From Azolla caroliniana (Eukaryota > Plantae > Polypodiophyta), in the NCBI GenBank assembly GCA_043228905.1, contig JBHGNT010000382.1, forward strand, positions 1 through 29,993: 29,993 bases of DNA, given 5' to 3'. A model generated the notes under the pieces. It saw nothing but the letters and a program-made list of their open reading frames with translations, was not told the DNA's origin and did no database searches. Made by a program: the position numbers and the translations under genes. Positions 1,172 to 29,993 of this stretch are shown here, piece by piece (the stretch's first letter is position 1; each line of letters starts with the position of its first letter).

Positions 1172-1449
1172 ATTATGTTAAGGGAATATTCAATAGTAGC
1201 TAGGAGGCTTAAGACTGGCGTTGAACCGATTTGGTTCGAAATAATGCCTTGTGCCTCCTTTTATAGTGTTGTCAGGAGTACTCCTGAAATTTCTAGAATG
1301 TTCTAGAGAAATATGGAATATACTTCAATTTTCTATAGTAAAACCTAAATGAAAATAATATCCTTCATATTACAACATATAGTTTAATGGTCAAGAGCTT
1401 GACCCATGTAACATAAGGTCATGGGTTTGAGTCTTGCTATATCATGACA
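1172..1449 (-). mobile_element. Partial 3' LTR of an older chromovirus copy, interrupted by Copia A
   Basis: Clearly homologous to about 19620-19891 (GAGGCTTAAGACTGGCGTTGAACC, GTGCCTCCTTTTATAGTG, terminal CATGACA). It is followed by a decayed PPT complement. Confidence 0.9.
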
Positions 1450-3650
1450 CTATCTTGCCTTTAAAACGATGGAAGTATTCAAGAAGAGCACGAGCATTGG
1501 TCACATTCTCTATTGGTTCCCAAGTACGCTTGATGGGACTATATCCTAGCCAATCGACTAAATTGTAGAGCTTGTTGCGAACAATCTTGGAATTGAGGAT
1601 GGCGGCAACCTCGTACTCAGGTCCATAGTCAAGCTCGATCGGGGGTGGAGGTTGTTTAATACGACCTGTGATGGTGCTGTCTTGATAGGGTTCGAGGAGA
1701 GAACTATGAAACACCAAATGTATCCAAAGTTGTGGAGGTAGATCGAGTCGAAAAGTGACATCATTAATTTTTCCGATAATACGGAAAGGACCTAATCGCC
1801 GGTAATCCAACTTCTCGCATCGCATGGGTGAGTAGTCTTGATGTGTCGTCATAGTAGCCACACCTGATCTCCAATGTCAAAACTGGATGGAAGTCGATGA
1901 CAATCCACGCAAACCTTGTGTGTTTGTTGAGCTTGTTGTAGATGAGTAGATAAATCCGCTTGTATCTTACGTAGCCGCTCCAAATGATCCTCTGCAGAAG
2001 GATTTGTAGGTAACTCTAGGGTTTCAAATACACACAACCGGGGGTGACAACCCTTGTAAGCATAAAATGGTGTCACCTTTGTCGATGAGTGGACAGAGTT
2101 ATTATACGCAAATTCGGCGAAGTGGAGAATATCCACCGAGTCATCTTGATGATAGCTTAAAAAGCACTGAAGATACTGCTCCAACGTTTGATTTGTTTTT
2201 TCTGCTTGGCCGTCTGTTTGCGGGTGGTAGCCGGAGGAGAGGTTACAAGTGACCTTAAGCATTTTAAAGAGGTGCTTCCAGAACTTCGAGACGAATTGGG
2301 GTCCACAATCGCTGATGATACTATTGGTAAGGCCATGATGCCGACATACTTCACGCATGACAATTTCATCGGTTTCTTCACTGGAGATTTCCTTAGTACA
2401 TGGCAGGAAATGGGCCATCGTCGTATATCGATCTATGACTGTTAAGATCGCATCGAATCCCTTAGAGACCGGAAGATCTGTGATGAAATCTAGGGCAATG
2501 GATTGCCATGGCTTGCTTGGAATTGGTAATGGTTCTAATAAACCGTATGGACTATGCCTTGGCATTTTTGCTCTCCAACATGTATCACAAGTCCGAACAA
2601 AATCTTCGACAAATTGTCGCATATGGGGCTACCAGAAGGATCCTTGTACTAAATCTAGTGTTTTAGTACTACCAAAATGCCCAAGTGTGTATGTGCCATG
2701 ACAATTTTGGACTTCTTGAAGGCGATAAGTACCATTGGGAACATACAAGAGTTTCTTAAAGAATAGTAATCCATCATGACATTCGAATTGTCAATAGTCC
2801 ATACCTGGTTGTTGTTCTGTGAACAAGATGCTCGAGAGGGATCAATTTGTGTTAGAATGGCTTGAGCGAAAACATCTGTCTTCAAGTCCTCACGTATGGT
2901 ATCGATAACGTGGGAATCCAAGGGCATACCGAAGACCTGCGTTGCTTGCAGTCGTGCCGGTCCCAAGATTACTTGCTTTTGGTTATCGAAAGCTGGCTCG
3001 CCGGGACGCAGTGCTAGATACGAACGCCGTGATAATGCATCTGCCTTCCCTTGTTACTTCCCCAGACGATATGTAATTTTGAAGTCGAAACGAGTGAGGA
3101 ATTGGGCCCACTGATCTTGACGTCGATTTAACACACGAGCATTCTGAAAGTAGGCAAGGTTTTTGTGATCATTGAATACGATGACTTGATGAGAAGACCC
3201 CTCTAGAAAATGCCTCCATTGAGTAAAAGAGTCCACTATTGCTAATAGCTCTTTATTGTGAATTTCATAGTTGATTTCCACGACATCAAACTTGTGTGAA
3301 TGGAATGCCACAGGATGTAGCTTTTCATCATCGCCTTGTTGAGATAGAATGCTACCCAAGATGAAATTCGACGCGTCTGCTTCAATGATGAATGGTTTTT
3401 CTGGATCAACATGAGCTAAAATAGGAGCTGATGTAAATTCCTTTTTAAGAATCTCAAAAGCAATGTCCGCTTCTTCAGATCAAACGAACGATTTTCCCTT
3501 CCTGGTAAGTTGTGTGAGAGGCAGAACAAGCTTTGAGTAATCCTATATGAACTTGCGGTATAAATTGACAAAGCCTAAAAAGCATTGCACATCTTGCAAT
3601 GAACGCGGAGTCTACCACTCTACCATCGTTTTGGCCTTAGCTGGATCCAT
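1450..3650 (-). pseudogene. pol: Degenerate Ty3/Gypsy pol fragment (end of RT, RNase H, integrase, chromodomain), truncated near 3650
   Basis: Broken ORFs at 3054-3359 (HPVAFHS, ELLAIV), 1849-2622 (LDFITDLP, YHPQTDGQAE) and 1442-1861 (LGPF, EYEVAAIL..LVDWLGY..TWEP) are colinear with the intact pol at 19903-22143. Confidence 0.95.
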
Positions 3651-3738
3651 CAATCATGATGTTGTTCATCATCAATCAAAGATCTTCATAAGAGAAGTGT
3701 TAGTTTTGTTCTGCATCTTGACGACCGTTTCCAACATT

Positions 3739-3750
3739 TGGTATTAGAGC
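3739..3750 (+). other. tRNA-iMet primer binding site (1 mismatch)
   Basis: TGGTATTAGAGC versus the canonical TGGTATCAGAGC, 2 nt after an LTR-terminal CA. Confidence 0.85.
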
Positions 3751-4646
3751 TTGACGTTTTTTTATTTTGTTGGTTGCCATCTTCTTTTCCTCATCAACAA
3801 CTCCTCCTTGTTACCCCGTAAAAGTCTTCTGGCTGATTTTGTTTGATAGAATAGACTCTGAGATTCCAATTGGTTTGAAATCTCCCATTCGACAACTTCT
3901 ACTTCCTGAGAAGCAATACCTAGAAAATCAACACTTCACTGAGCTAAATAACTCCTGAAGTAGGCTAGTCAGTTGTACTTCGCCTTTGTGATTGTAACTG
4001 CTTGAAGTGAGGTATTTCCATCGAGTCAACCATAAATCATGCTTCATCATGCTGGACGGCAATCGGTAAGGCCATCCGGCGATACCCACGCTCATCGTAA
4101 GCACTCGAAGCTGATTCAGTCCCATCAGGCCCTAGGAACAACCCACATTCGTGCTTCATTAAGCTAGAAGACATTCGGGAGGATCAATTGGCTCCATCTC
4201 TCTCATCGTTGTAGTCACCCAAACCTAGATCACCTTGGAAAACGGCACAAAGGTACATAATCTGTGATCAGTCTATAAAATCGGCAATCGAAATTAGACT
4301 GACAATTAACTGCACTCAATTCGACTAGATGATATTCGGGAAGACTAATCTGCTCTGTCCCTCCACTTGTCATAGTCACTCTGAGAAAGATTAGGACCCA
4401 AATTCCATCTGAAATCCAATCGACAATTAAATTGGCAAATTTAGGTTTAATTTGGCTAAAGTCAATCAACTACAGCCGATTCGACCCATCAACAATCGAA
4501 GCCGATTCCGCACACAACCCATCAACAATCGAAGCTGATTCGACCCATGTCCAAATCTGACTAGAATGATATAGGGCGAGCCAGTCGACAGCACCCCACC
4601 ACTGTTCGTAGTCCACTCCGGACAGAGCTTAGTCAACCGACACCGA

Positions 4647-5718: not shown

Positions 5719-6654
5719 TGTCGTGAGGTAGGAAAGCTTCACATTAAAAGTCTACCATAAGATAAATACATAACTAAAATAAAAAGAATCTTGATAGTGT
5801 TTTATACATAAGGATCTTATGAACAAAAACACTATGATAATATTATACATTATATGTAGAGGCAAATAAAGAAAAATATTGTATTACATGAGCAAAAGAA
5901 GACTTGAACCGATAACCTCCACCTTATGAGCCTCAAACCTTACCATTTAGTCAACATTGATGATGCATATAAAAATATTGTTGTTTTATTTGAACTAGCA
6001 TTCTATAGTCTAAACAATGTAATGTACTACATGTGCAGCATATAGCACACATGCAAGAGCCACTCTACATGTGTGCCACATGGCCCACATGTAGAACCAT
6101 CCCATTCCTATAAAGGAGAAGGGAGTATAGTCACAGAGATATCAAGGAATCGAAATCGAAGAACTATATTGTATAAGATATCAATCAAATAAAATAGAAT
6201 TATATGGTAAGAAATATCATAAGAAAGGAGACAAGGAGGAAACTTCTTTATATACAATTTTTAAAGATAAGAGAAGAACTAGCTTGGCAGTTGTGGTGTT
6301 CAACTCACAACGAAAGGGCTCGAGGTTTGAGTATTTTTCTCATCGGAAGATAGATTCAGGGAAGATTGTGATCTACTATCAACAAAGAGAAGAGTGGTTA
6401 CCTTGTGAGACAAAGTGCAAAGGTTCAACGACCCTCACAACTATTTTGTAACTCTTTCATCTAATAATTATAAATTTCTTACATTCCCTCAAATATCATG
6501 TTACATCCTATCTTGTCATATCTCATTGATCTTTGTTCACTACATATCTACTGTTTTCGTCTCTTCCGTCTGAAATCCCAACGATTCCTTCCTCACTTTC
6601 ACGTTACCTTCTATCAGAGCAACGGTACGCTTCTGGGCGAGCCACGCCCTGACG
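5719..6654 (+). mobile_element. Probable solo LTR I (about 936 bp) with a 4-bp TSD
   Basis: It starts TGTCGTGA, like the LTR of element G on its own strand, and ends CCTGACG. CCAT flanks it at 5715-5718 and 6655-6658, a TATAAAGG box lies near 6109, and LTR H sequence resumes afterwards. Confidence 0.65.
5892..5958 (-). promoter_or_regulatory. Degenerate tRNA-Met-like segment with Pol III A/B boxes inside LTR I
   Basis: The minus strand reads TGACTAAATGG (A box) TAAGGTTTGAGG CTCATAA (Met-type anticodon loop) GGTGGAGGTTATC GGTTCAAGTC (B box), then TTCTTTT. The stems do not pair. Confidence 0.55.
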
Positions 6655-11083: not shown

Positions 11084-11552
11084 AAAAATAGCGATTACTT
11101 AATGGTTTTTTTTTTGCTGAGCAAGCAAAAAAAAAATCATTTAGTGATTCTTGCAATTAAACTTTTGATGCACTCTTTCCTCCACGTACGGAGCATGCTC
11201 CTGAGTGATTTTATGGGCGGATAGCGGGAATCGAACCCGCGTCATCTCCTTGGCAAGGAGATATTTTACCATTCAACTATATCCGCAGATTTTCCTATCA
11301 CTTTTATTGTACACTCCATCGCAGGCTTAGTATATAGTAACCTCTGCAAGTCATTCGGCTTCTTGATTAGCTGCTTGACTCGATCGGGTTGCGGGCGAGG
11401 GGACCCACTCGCCCTCTCCCCCGAGATAGATTGAGGCGAAAAAGCTACTCCGTAACTTCTTTTTAGAGTAGATTATATCTTAACTATATTTATTGCGTCT
11501 CTACCCGCGATAGTAAGTTCCGGAGAACTGGGATTATTAATCATTGGGAAAT
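11084..11552. other. Plastid-derived insertion (NUPT) of about 470 bp inside Copia B gag; boundaries approximate
   Basis: Non-retroelement sequence that interrupts gag. It contains a plastid-type trnG-GCC and a T10-GCT/AGC-A10 hairpin at 11106-11136. Confidence 0.8.
11216..11286 (-). tRNA. trnG-GCC: tRNA-Gly(GCC), plastid type
   Basis: GCGGATATAGTTGAATGGTAAAATATCTCCTTGCCAAGGAGATGACGCGGGTTCGATTCCCGCTATCCGCC. The acceptor, anticodon and T stems all pair, and it closely resembles land-plant plastid trnG-GCC as I recall it. Confidence 0.93.
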
Positions 11553-12887: not shown

Positions 12888-13534
12888 TCCACCACCACCA
12901 AACCGCACATCCACTGGTATGTGCCAAGGAAGAAAAAAGGGTGAGAGATTTCGGCGACGGTGATCAACCGGGTCTTTCGCCTTACTAACACTCGACCGTC
13001 TCGCCGGCTCCTTGCCAGTCCCGACCCATCTCTCCATCCGATCCACCACGTCCTCCGCACGCACCTTCTTCTTCGACCGGCCTTCTCGAACACCGTTACC
13101 AATTCGGTCTCTCTTCCTTCGCCCATGTTGTGCATGCCGCCCCTTTAGTCCTGCTTTGATTTCGGCCCTTGATGGTTACTCGCACGATCCTTCTTCAGCT
13201 TTGGGTGTGCCTTTCCAGCCCGGCACACTGCTTCATGCTCGCCTTGCTGGCGCTTCGGAAACCGTAACCAACCGGTAAAGGCTTTGCACCCCGACTACCC
13301 CGTCTTGCCGGCTTTCGTTGTTGCCGGGTCCCGTTTCCCGCCGCCACCATCTTCCTCCTTGGTCTTACATCACATCGCTGGCTTGTACTGCCAGGGTCTC
13401 CGGATTCGAACTCCATAGGATAGGCTTCCTTTATCCTCATGAGCTTGTCGGAAGGTCTATTTCGGTTTGTGGCCGTCTCACCGGCCCGATGCCTCCTTGC
13501 CGCTCTGCCTTCATCAACTGATCACGTTCTCCTG

Positions 13535-13985
13535 CCGCCACCGTGGTTTCCTTTAGGGCTCACGCCGGCACTCGGGCCGACCGTCGGATCGGTGCGAGGA
13601 TCTCTGTGGGACCTCCCCCTTTGCCGCCTCAGTTGCCCGCCTTGCCGTTGCCACCGTTATTCCCTCTTGGTCTCACGCCAGCTCTCGGGCCGACCGCCGG
13701 AGTGTCTTAGAACCGGTGTGTGTAAGGTCGCGGCGACATCGCTTACCGTTTTCCTCTTGCCTCTTTTGCTGGTCACGTTCACCTACCGCCACCGATCTCT
13801 CCTATAGGACTCACTCCGGCACTCGGCCCGATCGCCGGATTGGTGTGAGGATCTCCGCAAATCGCCCCTCCTTTCCCTTCGCGTTCCCGCAAACCGCCCC
13901 TCGCCGCCACCATTCATCACTCTAGGTCTCACGCCGGCTCTCGGGCCGACCGCCGGAGTCTCTAGAATCGGTGTGAAGGATCCTC
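13535..13985. repeat. Degenerate GC-rich tandem repeat (four units of about 120 bp) in the interior of G
   Basis: Recurring CCGCCACC...CTCACGCCGGCACTCGGGCCGACCG..GGA..GGTGTGAGGATC. A further diverged unit lies near 14210-14285. Confidence 0.75.
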
Positions 13986-14743
13986 CTCGGACTCATTGTA
14001 TATCGAACCCTTATCCCGGGTCATCTTTCTCCGCAAGTTGAGAGGGTGGCTTGTTCCACACCCTCCCTCGTGGTACTGTCGTATCGTGTTCCCGGTCTCT
14101 TTGTAGGCCTGCATCTTCCTCCCTTCCGGATCGGTTATCCAGAAGTCCGCCGCACCCGGTTCTTGTCCGGGTCCGACCGTTACTCCACATTGCCGGGTCC
14201 CGTTCTCCTGCCGCCACCGTCAGTATCTTGGTCTTATATCGGATCCGATGTCGATCGCCGGAGTCTCTAGCCCGGTGTGAGGTGACGCATAGGACCGGTC
14301 TTCGTTCTCCGCTTCGTCGCTTGTACTTCTCCCTCCATCTCTCTTCTCTTCCGGACTCACGTTGCCACGCCATTCGAACTGCCAAAGTCTCCGGTCAAGA
14401 TGTGGGGTAACTGATCGCATAACGACTCCTGACAACTCATCCCAGGCCACTGACCCTTTTAGTGGTGTCGGTGGATAGCATCTGCTCTGGGCTTGATTCT
14501 CCAATGTCCGGCTTTCAATTCCCGACCTTCGCCCGGTCGGTCTTTCTCCCCATGTAAAAGAGGGCGGCTCGTTCCGCACCCTCTCTCGTATCGGCGCCTT
14601 CATGCTGATTCTGTCCCCGATCGAACAATCCACGACCGGATCACGCTCCACCCGAATCGGAGCGCCGCGCGGTTCGGTCCCCGGTTGGGTCGTTTCTTGG
14701 TCTCTTCGTCGACCTTCTCCCATCCATCTTCATTGGCATCGTG

Positions 14744-17782: not shown

Positions 17783-19452
17783 TTGTTGACTTGCAACTGT
17801 CCACACAGCCGGCGAAGTCTGAGTCGGTGTAACCGGCTACGCCTGAAGTTGAGTTCGGACCGAAAAGGATGTCGTGGTCTTTTGTGCCAGCTAAATATCT
17901 GAACACATGCTTGACTGCGTTCCAATGAGATCAGCCGGGATTGTGCATAAATCTACTGATGACTCCTACGACGTGAGAAATATCAGGCTGTGTCGTGACC
18001 ATCGCGTACATCAGAGAGCCTACTGCCGGTGCATACGGTACCGACTTCATGTCTTCCCCCTCCGGACCGGATGTCGGGCAGTCTCGCTGAGAAAGCCGAA
18101 GATGAATGGGGAGCGGGGTCAAAGCAGACTTGGCCGATTGCATGTTGAAGCGTTCCAAGACACGTCCGATGTAGTCGGTTTGAGACAAAAAAAGCTGTCT
18201 TTTGGCGCGATTCCGACTAATCTTCATTTCGAGTATGTGTCTTGACAGACCGAGGTCCTTCATGGCAAACTTCAATCGCAATTTTCGAACGAGTTCGGTG
18301 AGCTCTCCGGTATGCCGACCGGAGAGTAGCATGTCGTCCACGTAGATGATGAGGAAGACGGGAGAACCGTCTTGAGTTGTTTTGGTGAAGAGGCAGTGGT
18401 CCTCATCGCTCTTGGAGAAGCTGACCGACTGGATGAAATCGTTGAACTTCTTGTACCACTATCGAGGTCCCTGTTTCAGGCCGTAAAGACTCTTCCTGAG
18501 TCGGCAGACTAGATGTTCCTGACTGGTGGCCACAAAGCCTTTCGGCTGCTCCATGTAGATTTCCTCCTTTAGATCACCGTAGAGGAATGCCGTTTTCACA
18601 TCTAGCTGAATCAGCTCCAAATTGTCGGCGGCCACAACACCGAGCATGAAACAAAGGGTTGTCATTTTCACCACTGGTGAAAAGATTTCGTCGAACTCGA
18701 CGCCATATTCCTGTCGAAATCCCTTCGCAACTAATCTAGCCTTGTACTTTGGGGTGGTCAAGTCGGACGTCTCCTTTAGTCTATAGACCCACTTGCAAGG
18801 AAGAGCACGTCTATTCTTTGGTAAGTCGACCAAATCCCAAGTCTTGTTGGCGCGGATGGAGTGCATTTCCGACTCCATTGCCAGATGCCAGGTGGCTGAA
18901 TCGGCAGCTGCCGATGCTTCTTCATAGGACGTCGGTTCGCCAGCGTCGGTGAAGAAAATTCCGGGAGAGTACCTCTCCGGAGGTTGCGACAGTCTCTCAG
19001 ATCTTCGAGGTATGACTGAACTGGTCGCACCGGGTGTCAATGTCGGATGGTCGGAAGCCGATCCATTCGGCTGTGCCGAATCTGTGGATTCGGTGCGAGA
19101 GAAGTCGGTTACCCGTGAAACCGGTCTCCTGTTGTGTGATGGGCCATCATGAAGGGTTGGCACTTCAGAAAATATTACCCTTCGGACTTCAATAGGCCTT
19201 TCAGCCGTTTTGTGCATAGTCGACTCGTTGAACACGACGTCCGAACTTCGGACGATTTGCCTGTGCTCAGGGTCCCAGAGTCAGTATCTGATCTCGCCGT
19301 CGGGTCCGTACCCGAGGAAAACGCATTTCCTTGATCTCGGTTCCAGCTTTCGGCGGTCGTCTTTCGGTATGAGGGCGTATGCCTCGCAACCGAAAATCCT
19401 TAGCTTATCATAATTCGGCTTTCTGCCAGTCCATATTTCCTGAGGTATCTTA
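17783..19452 (-). pseudogene. pol: Copia C integrase C-terminus, RT and start of RNase H
   Basis: Motifs TWDLVDLP, KARLVAKG, QLDVKTAFL, SLYGLKQ, YVDDML and DLG. There is a premature TAG at 18459-18461. Confidence 0.93.
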
Positions 19453-19891
19453 TGTCAGGAATAGTACTAAAACAGAGATGGAATTAGTACTAAGAACAAC
19501 AGTACTATTAGTACTAAGAGGACGGGACTGCGTAAGATTCCCGAGAGAGGAAGTGAGAAGAGGAGAGAGAGAGAGATAGCGAGAATGAGAGAGAGAGAGA
19601 GATGATGACAACAACTATATATTATGTGAAAAGATAAGTACAAGCGGCTAAGAGGCTTAAGACTGGCGTTGAACCAATTTGGTTCAAAACAATGCCTTGT
19701 GCCTCCTTTTATAGTGTTTTTAGGAATAATCTTGAAGCTTCTAGAATGTTCCAGAGAGATCTGGAATATACATCAATTTTCTATGATAAAGTATAAATGA
19801 AAATAATATCCTACAAAATACAATTCCTAATCTAATGGTAAGAGCTCGACCCATGTAGCATAAAGTCATGGGTTCGAGTCTTGCCATGACA
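19453..19891 (-). repeat. 3' LTR of the chromovirus
   Basis: TGTCA...TGACA termini, matching 24700-25138. Confidence 0.97.
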
Positions 19892-19904
19892 CTATCTCCC
19901 CCTT
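19892..19904 (-). other. Polypurine tract of the chromovirus
   Basis: AAGGGGGAGATAG on the minus strand, immediately before the 3' LTR. Confidence 0.9.
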
Positions 19905-22900
19905 AAAGACGACGAGTGGAACGAGTCGGCGCTAACTGCGGACCGGGTTTGTCCGGATACTTTCGGTGGAAATCAGCAAGAAGATCTTGTGCATTGGCAA
20001 CATTCTCGACAGGTTCCCAAGTACGTTCGCTCGGACTATAACCGAGCCAATCGACCAAGTAATAAAGTTTGTTGTGAACAAGTTTGGAATCGAGGATGGC
20101 AGCAACTTCATACTCCGGGCCGACGTCCAACTCCAGCGGGGGCGGCGGTGGTGTCACACGATCGGGAATGGTGTTTGCTTTATAAGGTTCAAGAAGAGAA
20201 CAATGGAAAACCGGATGTATCTGAAGCTGCGGAGGGAGATCCAGGCGGAAGGTGACATCATTAATCTTCCCCGTAATACGGAAAGGACCGAGTCGTCGAT
20301 AATCCAACTTGTCGCACGGTCGAGTAGTCTTGATGTGACGACGTAAGAGCCATACTCGATCTCCGATGGCAAAAGAGGAGGGAATCCGATGACGATCCGC
20401 ATAAGTCTTCTGTGTGTGTTGAGCATGACGAAGATGAGTAGAGAGATCCATCTGGATCTTGCGTAGCCTCTCCAAATGGTCCTCGGCACGAGGGTTGGTA
20501 GGTAGCTCCGGAGTGTCGATCACCGACCAGCGAGGATGGAAACCGGTATAAGCGAGAAATGGGGAGACCCGAGTCGAGGAGTGAATAGCATTATTATACG
20601 CAAACTCCGCAAAGTGGAGAATCTCGGCCCAATCGTCCTGTTGATAACTCAGGAAACACCGGAGATATTGCTCCAACGTTTGGTTTGTTCGTTCCGCCTG
20701 TCCGTCAGTTTGAGGATGGTAGCCGGAGGAGAGGTTGCAGGAGACCTTGAGCATCCTGAAGAGATGCTGCCAAAATTTGGAGACAAATTGCGGGCCTCGG
20801 TCACTGATAATACTGTCTGGTAGGCCATGATGCCGAAATACCTCACGCATAACAAGAGTGGCGGTTTCCTCGCTAGTGATGGCTTTAGTACATGGCACAA
20901 AATGTGCCATCTTCGTATATCGATCGACGACGGTTAGGATAGCATCGAACCCCTTCGAGACCGGCAGATCTGTAATAAAATCAAGACAAATAGACTGCCA
21001 TGGCTTACTTGGAATTGGTAAAGGTTCCAACAAGCCATATGGATGGTGTCGTGGCATCTTTGCTCGGCAGCAAGCATCACAAGTCCGAACGTAGTCGTCG
21101 ACAAAACGGCGCATGTGGGGCCACCAAAAAGATCGTTGCACTAACTCCAACGTCTTGGTACTACCGAAATGTCCCGCCGTATGGGTGTCGTGACAATGTT
21201 GGACGATTTGAAGGCGACAGGAGCAATCGGGGACATATACGCGTTTTTTAAAGAATAACAAACCATCATGATATTCGAATTGTCGGTAGTCAATACCTGG
21301 TTGTTGAGACTGAGAACAGGATGCCCGAGAAGTATCAATGTGCGCCAGGATGTCTTGAGCAAAACTATCCGTCTTCAAGGTTGCACGTATGTCATCGGTA
21401 ATCCGTGAATCCATCGGGGTGTGAAAAATCCGCGTCGTGTGCAATCGTGTTGGTCCCAAGATTACTTGCTTTTGATTATCAAATGTTGCGTCACCAGGAC
21501 GAGGTGCAAGATATGAACGCCGTGATAGTGCATCTGCTTTTCCTTGCTGCTTCCCCGGTCGATATGTGATTTCGAAGTTGAAACGCGTGAGGAATTGCGC
21601 CCACCGAGCTTGCCGTCGATTTAGTACGCGAGCGTTCTGAAAATAAGCAAGATTTTTATGATCGCTAAAGACAATGACCTGATGTGGAGAGCCCTCTAAG
21701 AAATGCCGCCATTGTACAAATGAATCCACGATGGCTAATAACTCCTTGTCATGTATTTCGTAGTTGATTTCTGCGACATTGAATTTGCGCGAATGGAAAG
21801 CCACCGGATGCAACTCTTCTTTATCGCCTTGTTGAGAAATGATGCTACCGAGGGCGAAATCTGATGCGTCGGCCTCCATGATGAATGGTTTGCTTGTATC
21901 CACATGAGCTAGAATCGGTGCTGATGTAAAGGCTTTCTTAAGATGCCGAAAAGCCATATCTGCTTCGATGGACCAAAGAAATGCTTGGCCCTTCTTCGTA
22001 AGTTGTGTGAGAGGTAAAATAATCTTCGAGTAATCCTGTATAAACTTACGGTAGAAGTTAGCAAAGCCTAGAAAACATTGTACATCTCGTACCGACCGTG
22101 GAATTTGCCACTCTAGTACAGTTTGGATTTTAGCTGGATCCATGGCGATGCCCTTTGAGGAGATGACGTAGCCTAGAAATTCCACTTGCTTGCAGTCAAA
22201 GCTACATTTCTCTAGCTTGGCATAAAGACCATTCTCGCGGAGTCGCTTTAGTACTAATAGTACATGAGAATCGTGCTCTTCCTGGGTCTTCGAATAAATC
22301 AACAAATCATCCAGATAAATGATCAAACAGATATCCAAGAGGTCTCTGAATATATCATTTGCCATGTGTTGGAAGACTGCGGGTGCATTGGTTAGGCCAA
22401 AAGGCATAACAGTATACTCGAAATGCCCATACCGCGTGCGAAAAGCGGTCTTCCACTCATCTCCCGGTCGGATCCGCACGAGATTATACGCTCCTCGTAG
22501 GTCGATTTTAGTAAAAAACTTGGCACCATTAACTCGCTCTAAAAGACTTGATATAAGAGGAAGTGCATACCTATTCCGGATGGTGACTTTATTCAATCCG
22601 CGGTAATCAACGACAAGACGAAGTGAGCCATCTTTCTTCTTGACAAAGAAGATGGGTGCACCGGCCGGAGATTTCGAATGACGGATGAACCCGCTTGCCA
22701 AGTTCTCCTCTATGTAGGCTCGAAGGACTTCTAACTCGGTGGGTGACAAGTTGTAAATTGGTCTCCATGGTGGCTCGGTTCCTGGTTGTAAATCGATGGG
22801 ACAGTCATAGGGACGGTGATGAGGAAGGGTACCGGCTTTTACCTTGTCAAATACATCGGCATAAGGATGATATTTTGCCGGAAGTTGTATTGAGGAGTCC

Positions 22901-23484
22901 TTCTTAATAGTGCTAGAAGGATGTACTGATATGGCAAATAGGAACATTGCCTCCTTGGGTCCTTCTTCACGTAGTTGATGGAGTGAAATGGTCGAAACTC
23001 GGTGAGTTGATTCTTGGGGTGGTCGATATCGGACTTCTCTTGTTCTCCAATCTATGGCTGGATTATGTAATTCAAGCCAAGGTAATCCTAGGACAATGGG
23101 ATGCTCTGGACTACTAATTATATTAAATGATATTATACACACAAAACTACCTAGGACAACTTGAATGGGTTCTGATTCTTCTACAATATTCCCGGAAGCA
23201 ATGGGACGACCATCAATGACCACTACAGATGCGGGACAAGGAAGTTTTCTTAAGGATATCTGAGAAGCTTGGGCAAAATTTCGATCCATGAAACAGGAAT
23301 TAGCTCCGGAATCTAAAAGTGCTAGGACGGGTACTGGGGGAGTACTTTTAGTACTAACAATGACTTGGGCTAGGAACACATTGCTAACTTGCTTGGAAGT
23401 AATGGAACCACTAATGGGCTGTACAGATCTAGGGCTGTTGTCCAACCAAATGGCTCCTATTTTGGCTGGACTCAATCGTTTAAC
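19903..23484 (-). CDS. pol: Pol polyprotein (PR-RT-RNase H-IN-chromodomain), probably expressed as Gag-Pol by a -1 frameshift
   Basis: 1190-aa ORF with LLDSGA, YLDD, ADASDFALG, HHCC zinc finger, LDFITDLP, SDRG, LGPF and EYEVAAIL..YYLVDWLGY..TWEP. The track's start codon is TTG, not ATG. Confidence 0.96.
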   Translation of the reverse strand, partial: VKRLSPAKIGAIWLDNSPRSVQPISGSITSKQVSNVFLAQVIVSTKSTPPVPVLALLDSGANSCFMDRNFAQASQISLRKLPCPASVVVIDGRPIASGNIVEESEPIQVVLGSFVCIISFNIISSPEHPIVLGLPWLELHNPAIDWRTREVRYRPPQESTHRVSTISLHQLREEGPKEAMFLFAISVHPSSTIKKDSSIQLPAKYHPYADVFDKVKAGTLPHHRPYDCPIDLQPGTEPPWRPIYNLSPTELEVLRAYIEENLASGFIRHSKSPAGAPIFFVKKKDGSLRLVVDYRGLNKVTIRNRYALPLISSLLERVNGAKFFTKIDLRGAYNLVRIRPGDEWKTAFRTRYGHFEYTVMPFGLTNAPAVFQHMANDIFRDLLDICLIIYLDDLLIYSKTQEEHDSHVLLVLKRLRENGLYAKLEKCSFDCKQVEFLGYVISSKGIAMDPAKIQTVLEWQIPRSVRDVQCFLGFANFYRKFIQDYSKIILPLTQLTKKGQAFLWSIEADMAFRHLKKAFTSAPILAHVDTSKPFIMEADASDFALGSIISQQGDKEELHPVAFHSRKFNVAEINYEIHDKELLAIVDSFVQWRHFLEGSPHQVIVFSDHKNLAYFQNARVLNRRQARWAQFLTRFNFEITYRPGKQQGKADALSRRSYLAPRPGDATFDNQKQVILGPTRLHTTRIFHTPMDSRITDDIRATLKTDSFAQDILAHIDTSRASCSQSQQPGIDYRQFEYHDGLLFFKKRVYVPDCSCRLQIVQHCHDTHTAGHFGSTKTLELVQRSFWWPHMRRFVDDYVRTCDACCRAKMPRHHPYGLLEPLPIPSKPWQSICLDFITDLPVSKGFDAILTVVDRYTKMAHFVPCTKAITSEETATLVMREVFRHHGLPDSIISDRGPQFVSKFWQHLFRMLKVSCNLSSGYHPQTDGQAERTNQTLEQYLRCFLSYQQDDWAEILHFAEFAYNNAIHSSTRVSPFLAYTGFHPRWSVIDTPELPTNPRAEDHLERLRKIQMDLSTHLRHAQHTQKTYADRHRIPSSFAIGDRVWLLRRHIKTTRPCDKLDYRRLGPFRITGKINDVTFRLDLPPQLQIHPVFHCSLLEPYKANTIPDRVTPPPPPLELDVGPEYEVAAILDSKLVHNKLYYLVDWLGYSPSERTWEPVENVANAQDLLADFHRKYPDKPGPQLAPTRSTRRL
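23430..23484 (-). promoter_or_regulatory. -1 ribosomal frameshift signal (slippery heptamer plus stem-loop or pseudoknot)
   Basis: G TTA AAC at 23484-23478 in the gag frame, a 6-nt spacer, then an 11-bp stem GTCCAGCCAAA/TTTGGTTGGAC (23471-23440). Confidence 0.8.
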
Positions 23485-24629
23485 TCTTCATCTAATTGAC
23501 TAAGGATTTCAAATTTATTTGAGATACTTGGGCTATTAGTACTATGAATACTATCTGACACTCTATTAGTACTATTAATACTATCAGACACTCCAAAGGG
23601 AAGAATTGACTCGGGTTTAGTACAGGTGACGATTTGATTTACCTGTCTTCTTGGCCTATGGGGACAATTGATGGCGATATGTCCTGGTCCACCGCAATAA
23701 AGACATAATCGATTGGCACGTCGTCGTTGCTTTTCTTCTTCCGATAACGGGCCGCATCGACGCATGGTATCGATCTCCATCGGTGTCGAAGTATTTGCTT
23801 GAGGTGTGTCTCGTGCAAACGGTTTAGCCGCGACTGCGGTGTAAGTGGGCTCTGGCCTAGAGCGTGGTATCTGTAATTGACGTTCTGAACACCGTTCAAA
23901 AAGGCGGTTGTCACATCGAACTGCTCGACTGATTGCCTCCGTAAGAGACTTTGGTTCTTCGGGGAAAGTTAGAAGTAGATCTTTGACATCGTTTCGCAAG
24001 CCATAGCGAAACTGCTCCATTAGTGCTTGATCATCCCAGGGTATATCTGAAGCAAGTAGGCGGAAATCCGCCGCGTAGGCAGAGGCTGGACGATCGCCTT
24101 GACGCAATCGCCGGATCTTGTTGATCGCCGTCCTGATGTTGTCGGTGTCTCCAAAGCAGGCTTTAAACTCACCAATAAAATCTTCAAAGTTATTAAGTAA
24201 GGGTGATTGTTTTTCTAGAAGCGGAGCAAACCATGCCAAGGCTGAGCCGCTAAGTAGCGTGCCTATTAGGCCGACTCGAGATGCATCGGTGGGATATCGG
24301 GAAGGATGCATCTGGATGACTAAGCGTACCTGATTAAGGAATCCCCGGAATTGCGAACGCGTTCCATCAAATTTCACAGGAAGTCCAATCTTGGGCTCTT
24401 TATGAAATCCTTGGGGACTGGATCCTTGTTGTTGCAACGCTGCTTCGAGTTGTTGTACCCGTAACGCTAACTCCCCATGTTGTTGTTGCGTTTGTTGTTT
24501 TTCTAGAGCGATTTGTTGCAGATCCCCTATCAGCCGTTGGTTTTCTTGTTCCAGGGCAACAAACTTTTCTTTTAGGCACTGTAGCTCGGAGAAAACGGAT
24601 TGGTATTCTTGGGCGCTAACCGTAGCCAT
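23472..24629 (-). CDS. gag: Gag (N-terminal coiled coil, capsid, CCHC zinc knuckle)
   Basis: 385-aa ORF with KFDG, LSGSALAWF, LRQG..YAADF, FRYGL and CLYCGGPGHIAINC. Confidence 0.96.
   Translation of the reverse strand: MATVSAQEYQSVFSELQCLKEKFVALEQENQRLIGDLQQIALEKQQTQQQHGELALRVQQLEAALQQQGSSPQGFHKEPKIGLPVKFDGTRSQFRGFLNQVRLVIQMHPSRYPTDASRVGLIGTLLSGSALAWFAPLLEKQSPLLNNFEDFIGEFKACFGDTDNIRTAINKIRRLRQGDRPASAYAADFRLLASDIPWDDQALMEQFRYGLRNDVKDLLLTFPEEPKSLTEAISRAVRCDNRLFERCSERQLQIPRSRPEPTYTAVAAKPFARDTPQANTSTPMEIDTMRRCGPLSEEEKQRRRANRLCLYCGGPGHIAINCPHRPRRQVNQIVTCTKPESILPFGVSDSINSTNRVSDSIHSTNSPSISNKFEILSQLDEELND
23533..23592. repeat. 30-bp in-frame tandem duplication in the gag tail
   Basis: CTATTAGTACTATGAATACTATCTGACACT / CTATTAGTACTATTAATACTATCAGACACT, encoding VSDSI[N/H]STN twice. 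Confidence 0.85.
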
Positions 24630-24684
24630 AGTATAGGGAAAAGGGTAGGAGGATGAGGGAGAGTGACAAGTAGGCTAGAGGGAA

Positions 24685-24699
24685 CAAATTGGTTCAAAC
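24685..24699 (-). other. Non-tRNA (self-priming) primer binding site
   Basis: GTTTGAACCAATTTG has no TGG start. Thirteen of its bases are complementary to CAAATTGGTTCAA at 24928-24916, about 32 nt downstream of the LTR TATA box. Confidence 0.8.
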
Positions 24700-24979
24700 T
24701 GTCAGGAATAGTACTAAAACAGAGATGGAATTAGTACTAAGAACAACAGTACTATTAGTACTAAGAGGACGGGACTGCGTAAGATTCCCGAGAGAGGAAG
24801 TGAGAAGAGGAGAGAGAGAGAGATAGCGAGAATGAGAGAGAGAGAGAGATGATGACAACAACTATATATTATGTGAAAAGATAAGTACAAGCGGCTAAGA
24901 GGCTTAAGACTGGCGTTGAACCAATTTGGTTCAAAACAATGCCTTGTGCCTCCTTTTATAGTGTTTTTAGGAATAATCT

Positions 24980-24999
24980 TGAAGCTTCTAGAATGTTCC
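24980..24999. promoter_or_regulatory. Perfect heat-shock element (four nGAAn units); also at 19733-19752 and 1285-1304
   Basis: tGAAgcTTCtaGAAtgTTCc lies about 20 bp upstream of the TATA box. Confidence 0.75.
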
Positions 25000-25074
25000 A
25001 GAGAGATCTGGAATATACATCAATTTTCTATGATAAAGTATAAATGAAAATAATATCCTACAAAATACAATTCC

Positions 25075-25138
25075 TAATCTAATGGTAAGAGCTCGACCCA
25101 TGTAGCATAAAGTCATGGGTTCGAGTCTTGCCATGACA
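25075..25138 (+). promoter_or_regulatory. tRNA-like A/B-box cassette at the U3 terminus, antisense to the element; also at 19828-19891 and 1380-1449
   Basis: TAATCTAATGG...GGTTCGAGTC with tRNA-like spacing. The older copy reads TAGTTTAATGG...GGTTTGAGTC. Confidence 0.55.
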
Positions 25139-27080
25139 TCTTAAGTCCTAGAGGTCTACTTGGCGACATATTGATTATGTGTATTGTCGTGAGTAGAGCC
25201 TCTGCCCAGAAGCCATCCGGCAATCTGGAGTGTTGGAGCATGGATACAACGCGTTCTTGAATCGTCCGATTCATGCGTTCTGCGATTCCGTTCTGCTCCG
25301 GACTATATGGTGCCGTATATTCACGTCTAATGTCGCGTTCTCGGCAAAAATTTGACGAATTCATCAGATTTGAACTCACCTCCATTGTCGGTTCGGAGAC
25401 ACTTCAGTTTCCGACCGGTCTGGTTTTCGACCATTGCGAGCCAATTTGAGAAGATCGAGAACACCCGATCTTTGGTTCTGATGGGGTAAGCCCACACTTT
25501 CCGAGTCGAGTCGTCAATGAAACTGACGAAGTACGAGGCACCACCGAGTGACTGATGTGGCATCGGGCCACAGACGTCCGAGTGGACCAAATCGAGCAGG
25601 CTCGACTCTCTTGGTGCTGATGTCGGGTGTGATGCGGCTACCTGTTTGCCGTACTGGCAATGCTCGCAAAACTGATGGTCCGAGAAGGAGAGTTTCGGGA
25701 TGTATCCGGCTCTGGATAGGTGCGTGATGTCGGTCTTGCTAAGGTGTCCAAGTCGTCCATGCCATAAGGATGACACAGGGATATCTACCAGAAATAAGTC
25801 ACCCTCCCTGAGTGTGACATACAAAGGGTACAATGAGTGTACCTTTGGTCCTCTAGCAAGCAGGAGGTTCCCTCTGTGGAGTGTCCACCCTCCTGATGAG
25901 AAACCAGCACGGATGCCAGCTTCATCAAGTTGTCCGACTGAGATCAAGGTCGTGAGAGCTCAGGAACGTGTCGGACGTTGTGTAGTACGAGTGTAGAGCC
26001 ACCCGGAAGGTTGAGCTCTACGGTGCCGATTCCGATGATAGCACAGTGCTGCAAATTTCCGACTCGAACTGAGTCGGAGTGCCGGTCCGAATATTGCCGA
26101 AACTATGATCGGTGAGGTGTCACGTGATACAACGCGCCCGAGTCCAGAAGCCATGTGCTCGATTCCTCAGTCGTAAGCAGAACTTCTGATTCGACTGGAT
26201 TCTCTATGGACAATATGTTCGGGTCGGTCGTCAATATCTCAGCTGAAGAGCCGACGTAGTTGACTTCCTCATGTCGGTTACTCCTCTGATCAGCTCTCTG
26301 AGCTTTGTCTGTCTTTGACTTGAGTACCCGACAGTCGGCCTTGATGTGTCCCAGTTTCTTGCAGTAGTTGCAGATTCGGGTTTCCCGGGACTTCTTGCGG
26401 CTTCGCTGATTTGTCGGTGGTCGGGAAGAACTTCTTCCCCGGTTGTTCGATCGGTCAGTCGAACCTTGTACTACATAGGCTTCTTCTATTGAGTCTTTGG
26501 TGAAAGACTTTCTCCGAGCTGCTTCAGTCAGGATTGCACTTGTGACTTCGGAGTACTTGATGGCAGTCGTAGAAGCGTTGCACACAGTTGTAATGAAGGT
26601 TTCCCAAGAGGAGGGGAGACTGCTCATGAGTATCATTGCTCTGAGTTCATCCTCGATTGTCGTCCCCTGTGACGAGATTTGGGAGCTCAAACTTTCGTAC
26701 TCGTTAAGGTGTGCCTGAATTGAATCGGAGTCTTTCATCCGCAGGTTGTAGAGGCGCCGGATCAAATACATCTTCGTTGAGGTGACCTTCTTTTCGTAGG
26801 TTTCCGACAGTTTCTTCCAAAGTTCGAAGGCTATCGTGCACGATTGCACTGTGAAGTACACTGACTCCGACAGGTGCATCCGAATCGTGGCGCGGACGAT
26901 TCTGTCCAGCTTTTGCCACTCATTTGCTTTGTATATTTCTGGAGCAGTTTCATTCTCAATCGGATCAATCTGACCCTTGACTATAAGATAGTCCTGCATT
27001 TGCTCCTTCCAAAAATTGAAGTTCAAACCGTCGAACCTCCTTAGACTCATTTCCGATGAGCCGGATGTTGATGCCATCAT
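25139..27080 (-). pseudogene. gag-pol: Copia C gag-protease-integrase with frameshifts
   Basis: ORF 26103-27080 has CNYCKKLGHIKADC and WLLDSGA. ORF 25327-25947 has LWHGRLGH, VHSDVCGP and LRTDNGGEF. ORF 25113-25385 has PEQNGIAERMNRT. Confidence 0.95.
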
Positions 27081-29753: not shown

Positions 29754-29993
29754 AGATCTATGCAGCCCATTAGTGGTTTCATTTCCTCTATGCAAGTTAG
29801 CAATGTGTTCTTAGCTCAAGTAATGGTTAATACTAAAAGTACTCCTCCAGTACATGTCTTAGCACTCTTAGATTCCGGAGCCAACTCTTGCTTCATGGAT
29901 AGGAATTTTGCCCAAGCTCATCAGATATCCCTAAAGAAACTCCCATGTCCAGCCTTTGTAGTAGTCATTGATTGTCATCCCATTGCTTCTGGG
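29754..29993 (+). mobile_element. pol: Third chromovirus copy: protease region, continuing past the window end
   Basis: RSMQPISGFISSMQVSNVFLAQV..LALLDSGANSCFMDRNFAQ is homologous to 23430-23190, in the opposite orientation. Confidence 0.92.

Follow-up and report, generated by a model that had tools for sequence, protein, structure and literature searches.

A candidate antisense A/B-box cassette of tRNA type at the U3 end of a Tcn1-like chromovirus LTR from Azolla

In a 29,993-nt stretch of Azolla caroliniana DNA (the window, by which we mean the whole of the stretch analyzed), a chromovirus's long terminal repeats (LTRs) carry at their U3 end, on the strand opposite to the element, an A box and a B box spaced as in a tRNA. 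Comparison with related elements supports the view that these boxes have been under selection across the clade, the main evidence being their retention in three independent lineages. As far as can be judged from sequence, the cassette is probably a working TFIIIC/Pol III site, when a role as a chromatin barrier and a role in making a functional RNA are taken together. More specifically, we tentatively prefer the reading that it is a type-2 Pol III promoter at which TFIIIC and TFIIIB would shield the Pol II promoter of the element from flanking heterochromatin.

The host element and its older relative in the window have the following features.

19453-25138, minus strand: Tcn1-like Ty3/gypsy chromovirus, 5686 bp, with intact gag and pol
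19448-19452, no strand: target site duplication (TSD) TCTTA, second copy at 25139-25143
19453-19891, minus strand: 3' LTR, TG...CA, 439 bp
19892-19904, minus strand: polypurine tract (PPT)
19903-23487, minus strand: intact pol ORF, 1194 aa, with protease, RT, RNase H, integrase and chromodomain
23472-24674, minus strand: gag ORF, 400 aa from stop to stop
24685-24697, minus strand: self-priming primer-binding site (PBS), complement of LTR positions 211-223 (24916-24928)
24700-25138, minus strand: 5' LTR, 439 bp, same sequence as the 3' LTR
24954-24960, minus strand: putative Pol II TATA box at LTR position 179, lying 115 nt inward from T8
1199-3650: older, truncated copy of the same family

The two LTRs differ at 0 of 439 positions and the element is flanked by TCTTA, thereby indicating a recent insertion. 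This young copy is nested in a copia element and does not lie beside a tRNA gene. The chromodomain of Pol matches PF00385 at 1126-1176, and the aromatic-cage residues Y, W and Y are all present. The earlier note held that the element does not need a tRNA primer, and this proved correct: a 13-nt self-priming complement lies behind the 5' LTR, its target is located approximately 30 nt after the TATA box, and a tRNA PBS is absent. Because it precedes the self-primer by approximately 30 nt, the TATA sequence at LTR position 179 is taken as the putative Pol II promoter. The self-primer and PBS co-vary between the window element and two related lineages, L001 and L002, with 12-13 nt of complementarity kept through compensatory changes. 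Self-priming and the aromatic-cage chromodomain fit an assignment to the Tcn1 clade (Tf1/sushi group), which in the excerpted text of Neumann et al. is recorded from mosses and club-mosses only (PMC6317226). The gag and pol ORFs are in different frames and overlap by 16 nt (23472-23487), and a 30-nt tandem repeat (23533-23592) is located near their junction. A third copy of the family is represented by its protease region at 29754-29993 (plus strand), where it is cut by the window end.

The cassette and the structures associated with it are located as follows.

19828-19838, plus strand: A box (tRNA T8-G19) of the 3' LTR, with A in place of G10, 7 of 8 defined positions
19872-19880, plus strand: B box (G53-C61), at a distance of 11 nt from the LTR end, 8 of 8 positions
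19862-19867, plus strand: variable-loop-like segment, tRNA positions 43-48, kept across lineages
19793-19809, plus strand: AT-rich block upstream of tRNA position 1 (12-28 nt away), a putative TFIIIB zone
19835-19887, plus strand: family-specific fold-back hairpin with 19 Watson-Crick pairs, distinct from a cloverleaf
25075-25127, plus strand: cassette of the 5' LTR, same A and B boxes, facing outward into the flank
1380-1433, plus strand: cassette of the older copy, with A box at 1380-1390, B box at 1425-1433 and LTR end at 1449

The antisense boxes that had been described in the outer 64 bp of U3 were found on the plus strand as reported, TAATCTAATGG at 19828-19838 and GTTCGAGTC at 19872-19880. 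The distance of 44 nt from T8 to G53 is tRNA-like, as had been claimed, since the corresponding distance was 43-46 nt in 35 of 36 tRNAs used as a yardstick. The sequence of a second cassette is present at 25075-25138, but it does not count as a second observation because the two LTRs are identical. The diverged copy does have a full A box (1380-1390) together with a B box that carries C56>T at 1428. We scanned with a consensus of 16 A- and B-box positions; the young cassette had one mismatch, and when the terminal 130 nt were shuffled 3000 times with dinucleotides preserved, 0 shuffles came as close. Over both strands of the whole window, the consensus found five sites, corresponding to the three LTR copies, a tRNA-Gly gene and one site at 5953. 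A weight matrix built from bacterial tRNAs gave the young copy a weaker result, 13.5 bits, and 2 of 500 shuffles of the LTR end and 3 of 200 shuffles of the whole LTR scored as high. Since 35 background sites of at least 13 bits occur per 596 kb with this matrix, the score alone means little, and it is the place, strand and recurrence of the cassette that carry the case. Consensus hits were also noted within coding sequence, one in the pol of L002 and one, matching 15 of the 16 positions, at a homologous site within the pol of nine fungal-type chromovirus loci, where it is antisense on the minus strand (L019, L028, L042, L044, L050, L052, L053, L054 and L066); the homologous match of these nine loci is probably a chance product of codons.

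The site at 5953 belongs to a second A/B cassette (5900-5953, minus strand), which matches 15 of 16 positions, scores 16.3 bits and has its C61 approximately 21 nt from a TG. It lies in a 612-bp segment (5880-6491) that is bounded by TG...CA, has AATAT on both sides and a TATA at approximately position 231, and lacks a self-primer palindrome. This segment may represent another family's solo LTR, its cassette arranged in the same antisense way; its AT-rich TSD could be due to chance. The tRNA-Gly(GCC) at 11215-11286 (minus strand) is complete, scores 73 bits and lies in AT-rich DNA. It appears to be plastid-type, and the locus is possibly an organellar insertion. The window also contains two LTR-like pairs of 94% identity, 6948-7399/16948-17396 and 12018-12887/15980-16625; the latter has an internal duplication, and GC-rich tandem repeats (13500-14270) lie in between.

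A metagenome scan yielded 79 loci related to the element, and three further scans added 18. The PPT-adjacent start of the LTR could be assigned in 44 of the first 96 loci; L004 (79% protein identity, U3 end unalignable) and L080 (no 3' end) were left out. The U3 end also bears this antisense cassette in L001 (pol 67% identical) and L002 (pol 73%), and likewise in L035, a subfamily of the window element. Weight-matrix scores lay at 10-18 bits and were reached by 0-2 of 500 shuffles, and 0 of the 42 other chromovirus LTR ends, many of which are near-copies and which include the sister lineage L003, scored above 5 bits. Searches of viral and prokaryote collections found no further clade member with an LTR end. 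L001 matched the 16-position consensus completely, and the young copy, the old copy, L035 and L002 each matched 15 positions, in every case with 0 of 3000 shuffles as good. A quick tree placed the window element, L002 and L001 on one branch (SH-aLRT 99), with L003, which lacks the cassette, as sister.

At 4-fold degenerate sites of pol the window element and L001 are identical at 102 of 358 (0.28), against 0.27 expected at saturation, and the window element and L002 at 151 of 388 (0.39), which is near saturation. Between lineages, 6-9 of 11 A-box positions, 5-6 of 7 variable-loop positions and 6-8 of 9 B-box positions are identical; by comparison, 6-9 of 20 positions agree in the stretch that separates the boxes, a level near chance, as do 8-12 of the 30 positions upstream. 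Alignment of the 60 nt upstream of the A box was matched by 32-174 of 200 shuffles, and that of the cassette by 0 of 200. The B box is set back from the LTR end by a variable 11-36 nt, and the spacing of T8 and the TATA box ranges from 115 to 170 nt. Selection on the boxes across lineages thus finds support, in that they were kept in three lineages at or near synonymous saturation of pol while the flanks lost alignment.

The cassette is not a tRNA gene. The test against an Infernal tRNA model that the earlier note had proposed went against it, since RF00005 had no match at E<=10 in 151-bp stretches of the young and old copies. Relative to the gene cut-off of 29 bits, RF00005 likewise gave no match in L002 and 15.8 bits in L001. 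ARAGORN called only the tRNA-Gly at 11215 in the window and did not call the cassettes. The arms do not pair as a cloverleaf, and their pair counts are lower than those of real tRNAs. A tRNA gene as such is ruled out by RF00005, ARAGORN and the lost cloverleaf. In L001 the acceptor stem still has 6 pairs and a T4 run is present; together with its RF00005 score, these features point to tRNA ancestry. An origin of the cassette from a tRNA is supported by L001 and by the boxes kept across lineages.

It had also been noted that GTCATGG and CCATGAC fold the B box into a hairpin with the LTR terminus. This pairing exists, but the predicted fold is a far longer hairpin at 19835-19887, which joins approximately tRNA positions 15-36 to 48-68. 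Folding energies corresponded to z -5.5 in the young copy, -4.4 in L035 and -2.0 in the old copy, with 19-20 of 20 pairs formed, and family variants at 1387-1440 fall mostly in the hairpin loop, a bulge or the closing/end pair. In six cassettes, 83.9% of hairpin cells were paired, compared with 30-48% in slid controls, and six pairs change on both sides. L001 and L002 folded no better than shuffles (z 0.07 and 0.02) and formed 13-14 of the 20 pairs, which 481 and 69 of 20000 box-fixed shuffles equalled, respectively. Real tRNAs in the same register, taken at the best of five shifts, formed 9-15 pairs. Since the pairing of L001 and L002 lies within this control range, the long hairpin was dropped as a clade-wide structure. 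From these comparisons, the strong hairpin is read as a later, family-level feature and the boxes as a clade-level feature. L035 (564-644) has T54>G in the B box with the hairpin retained, and so offers a natural test of box versus stem.

Within the family, which is abundant (2056-3759 contigs per run on the LTR), variants were read from contigs mapped onto references, so that depth does not equal copy number, contig-end variants are missed and the old-copy reference favours its own alleles. The table of variants lists 40 of 74 rows for the young LTR and is complete for the old copy; X17 is probably DNA, X18 amounts to two contigs, and the contigs carry no strand information. In 1871, 1100 and 550 contigs from three runs, T8, A14, A15, T16, G18, G19 and T20 showed no variant at 4%. 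Position 9 of the A box is A or G, position 11 is T or C and position 12 is any of the four bases, as the A-box consensus permits; divided post hoc, 0 of 5 strict positions and 5 of 5 looser positions vary. G10>A accounts for 1-16% of depth and is present in the youngest, intact copy. The B box is invariant except for C56>T (2-16% of depth), and a CpG outside the boxes, at 1400, has T at a similar 3-11%, the reference favouring T at both sites. Because G10>A is found in the youngest intact copy and T54>G in L035, perfect boxes are not required. No family variants are listed in the AT-rich block at 19793-19809 (1345-1361 in the old copy).

The excess conservation of the boxes over the rest of U3 that the earlier note had expected did not appear within the family. 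Constant box positions were variable at 2 of 13, versus 10 of 35 positions at 1345-1379 (Fisher p 0.47), 8 of 34 between the boxes (p 0.70) and 0 of 16 in the terminal 16 nt; only the nearest 18 nt differed (10 of 18 variable, p 0.03). The hairpin itself could explain the invariance of A15-G19 and of the B box within the family.

The arrangement of the cassette, an A box and a B box at a workable spacing, is that of a type-2 Pol III promoter. As we picture its history, a tRNA or the head of a tRNA-derived SINE would have been captured once, on the branch leading to the clade, because the cassette is present in every one of the 3 lineages whose U3 end could be read and not in the sister lineage. 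The cloverleaf then decayed, but the boxes and the spacing between them remained, as did the variable-loop segment, a step that the lineage comparison documents. At 11-36 nt from the LTR edge, the B box would be bound by TFIIIC, and the A box would position TFIIIB within U3, in AT-rich sequence that lies from the cassette towards the TATA box (115-170 nt inward from T8), since type-2 promoters work in this manner. Occupancy by TFIIIC and TFIIIB would keep U3 open after the chromodomain integrase has delivered the element into heterochromatin, as yeast and human tDNA barriers act in this way. With LTR copying, every 5' LTR would bear the cassette on its host-facing edge, and any RNA would be directed outward, into the flank or, from the 3' LTR, antisense into the PPT and chromodomain region. 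Read-through from the 3' LTR would span the chromodomain codons (19960-20112), and the first T4 run is located at 21244. tRNA genes and ETC sites are TFIIIC-dependent barriers, and an ETC barrier needs the B box alone (excerpts of PMC12409998); the kept A box therefore fits transcription at least equally well. The excerpted text of a review of plant barriers reports no TFIIIC barrier in plants and no homolog of the yeast or animal barrier elements (PMC9540200), and the cassette would thus be a candidate plant barrier, one that occurs in a great many copies.

Chromodomain retrotransposons are thought to enter heterochromatin and yet need transcription there, and RLG1 of Physcomitrium is a case in point (excerpt of PMC7466625). 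If the shielding reading is true, a Pol III element built into the edge of the LTR would offer a concrete solution to the problem of transcription from heterochromatin, and tRNA-derived LTR promoters would extend from non-autonomous TRIMs to autonomous elements. In its present orientation the cassette cannot make the element's own RNA. The boxes are likely to recruit the Pol III machinery and may well help to keep the promoter of the element open in silenced chromatin. The fullest version of this idea, in which a clade of heterochromatin-seeking plant retrotransposons brings to every insertion a portable TFIIIC/Pol III insulator at the LTR edge and the promoter has been rebuilt in the family to yield a 20-bp hairpin RNA, appears doubtful to us.

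Alternatively, the Pol III RNA itself may be the product, an antisense or hairpin RNA that tunes copy number or engages silencing, by analogy with the LTR hairpins of foamy viruses. The A box determines where transcription starts, and it is retained no less well than the B box; the family hairpin has 19-20 pairs with its variants mostly in the loop, bulge and end pair, and in simian foamy virus (SFV) miRNAs arise from A/B-box promoters in the LTR (excerpt of PMC3993851). However, the terminator is not shared. The first T4 run downstream lies 65, 388, 1080 and 1416 nt away in four elements, which makes a conserved antisense RNA of set length unlikely; only in L001 is a T run found directly behind the cassette, inside the LTR, and this one favours an RNA product, whereas in the others it is 388-1416 nt off. 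The hairpin also fails to extend to L001 and L002, where pairing does not exceed that of real tRNAs. We regard an RNA product as unlikely.

A role in cis in reverse transcription or integration, either as a PPT-adjacent hairpin or by binding a tRNA on the genomic RNA in the manner of the 3' half of the Ty3 PBS in U3, is less probable still. The cassette is located at 4-60 nt from the PPT, its genomic-RNA strand is complementary to a tRNA, the hairpin is paired across the six cassettes well above the slid controls, and the U3-R region of HIV-1 has a tRNA-like segment. In Ty3, the T and D arms of the primer tRNA are bound in U3 (excerpt of PMC5371799). Against such a role, all of the lineages checked are self-primed with covarying complements. 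Pairing with one particular tRNA is a poor fit because the arms are identical at only 6-9 of 20 positions and position 12 is any of four bases, and the sense strand folds less well (z -1.9, 0.5 and -1.7). About as improbable is the view that a tRNA or SINE was captured and survives as a neutral relic, kept solely by its nearness to the att end used by integrase. The lack of excess conservation within the family, the degenerate boxes in two copies and the failure of RF00005 to match are what a relic would show, but the boxes outlast synonymous saturation, unlike the DNA that separates and flanks them, and they lie at varying distances from the LTR end. Ty3-type targeting of Pol III start sites is established and lends something to the idea that the cassette is a landing pad, to which elements integrating upstream of Pol III genes, its own family included, would be drawn, but this is very unlikely, because, in the loose-end rows listed (24 of 200 and 24 of 521; a weak test), no joint and no strong loose end fell 10-20 nt upstream of tRNA position 1 and because the young copy itself sits in a copia element away from tRNA genes.

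Returning to the cassette as a candidate Pol III promoter that would shield U3, we compared it with known systems. Helenus/TRIMp3 elements resemble it in having tRNA-derived boxes A and B in both LTRs with the cloverleaf mostly lost, and the plant and fungal members have a 5-bp TSD, as does the window element (PMC10886601). Helenus elements are non-autonomous, 311-1263 bp long and tRNA-primed (PMC10886601), whereas the window element is autonomous, 5.7 kb long and self-primed and has a putative TATA promoter; the cassette of Helenus-1_SMo from Selaginella is in sense orientation (excerpt of PMC10886601), whereas that of the window element is antisense at the U3 end. Its 5686 bp, intact gag and pol, antisense cassette and self-priming rule out the window element as a Helenus. 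Kojima (2024) expected the autonomous partners to use Pol II without such LTR sequence, and remarked that "not a few" Repbase LTRs have tRNA-like parts, of which TRIMs alone were pursued (PMC10886601). Cassandra TRIMs also have an internal Pol III promoter within a plant retroelement LTR, but theirs is a 5S-derived type-1 promoter that makes the RNA of a non-autonomous element (excerpt of PMC10886601). In tDNA and ETC barriers the B box is the predicted TFIIIC site at a chromatin boundary, as is proposed for the cassette; these are yeast and animal host loci, however, and not mobile LTRs, and ETC sites lack TFIIIB and Pol III (excerpts of PMC12409998). The bipartite PBS of Ty3 likewise has tRNA-complementary U3 sequence on the genomic RNA, but it binds one primer tRNA via the arms (excerpt of PMC5371799), whereas the window element keeps box and variable-loop positions only.

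Plant Tcn1 chromoviruses share two ORFs, the aromatic-cage chromodomain and self-priming with the window element, and the 440-bp LTR and 5-bp TSD of SM-Tcn1 are similar to its 439-bp LTR and 5-bp TSD; the excerpts of these sources make no mention of a Pol III cassette (PMC6317226, PMC2864245, PMC3350952). In the full-text literature, with Repbase entries and subscription papers outside the search, no antisense A/B cassette was found at the U3 end of an autonomous LTR retrotransposon. Foamy viruses are autonomous and, like the window element, have A/B-box Pol III promoters and hairpins in their LTRs; their cassettes differ in having demonstrated transcripts and T-run terminators and in not being described as tRNA relics (excerpts of PMC3993851), whereas the window family has no conserved terminator. 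For Pol III promoters within an LTR, foamy viruses offer the nearest precedent among autonomous elements.
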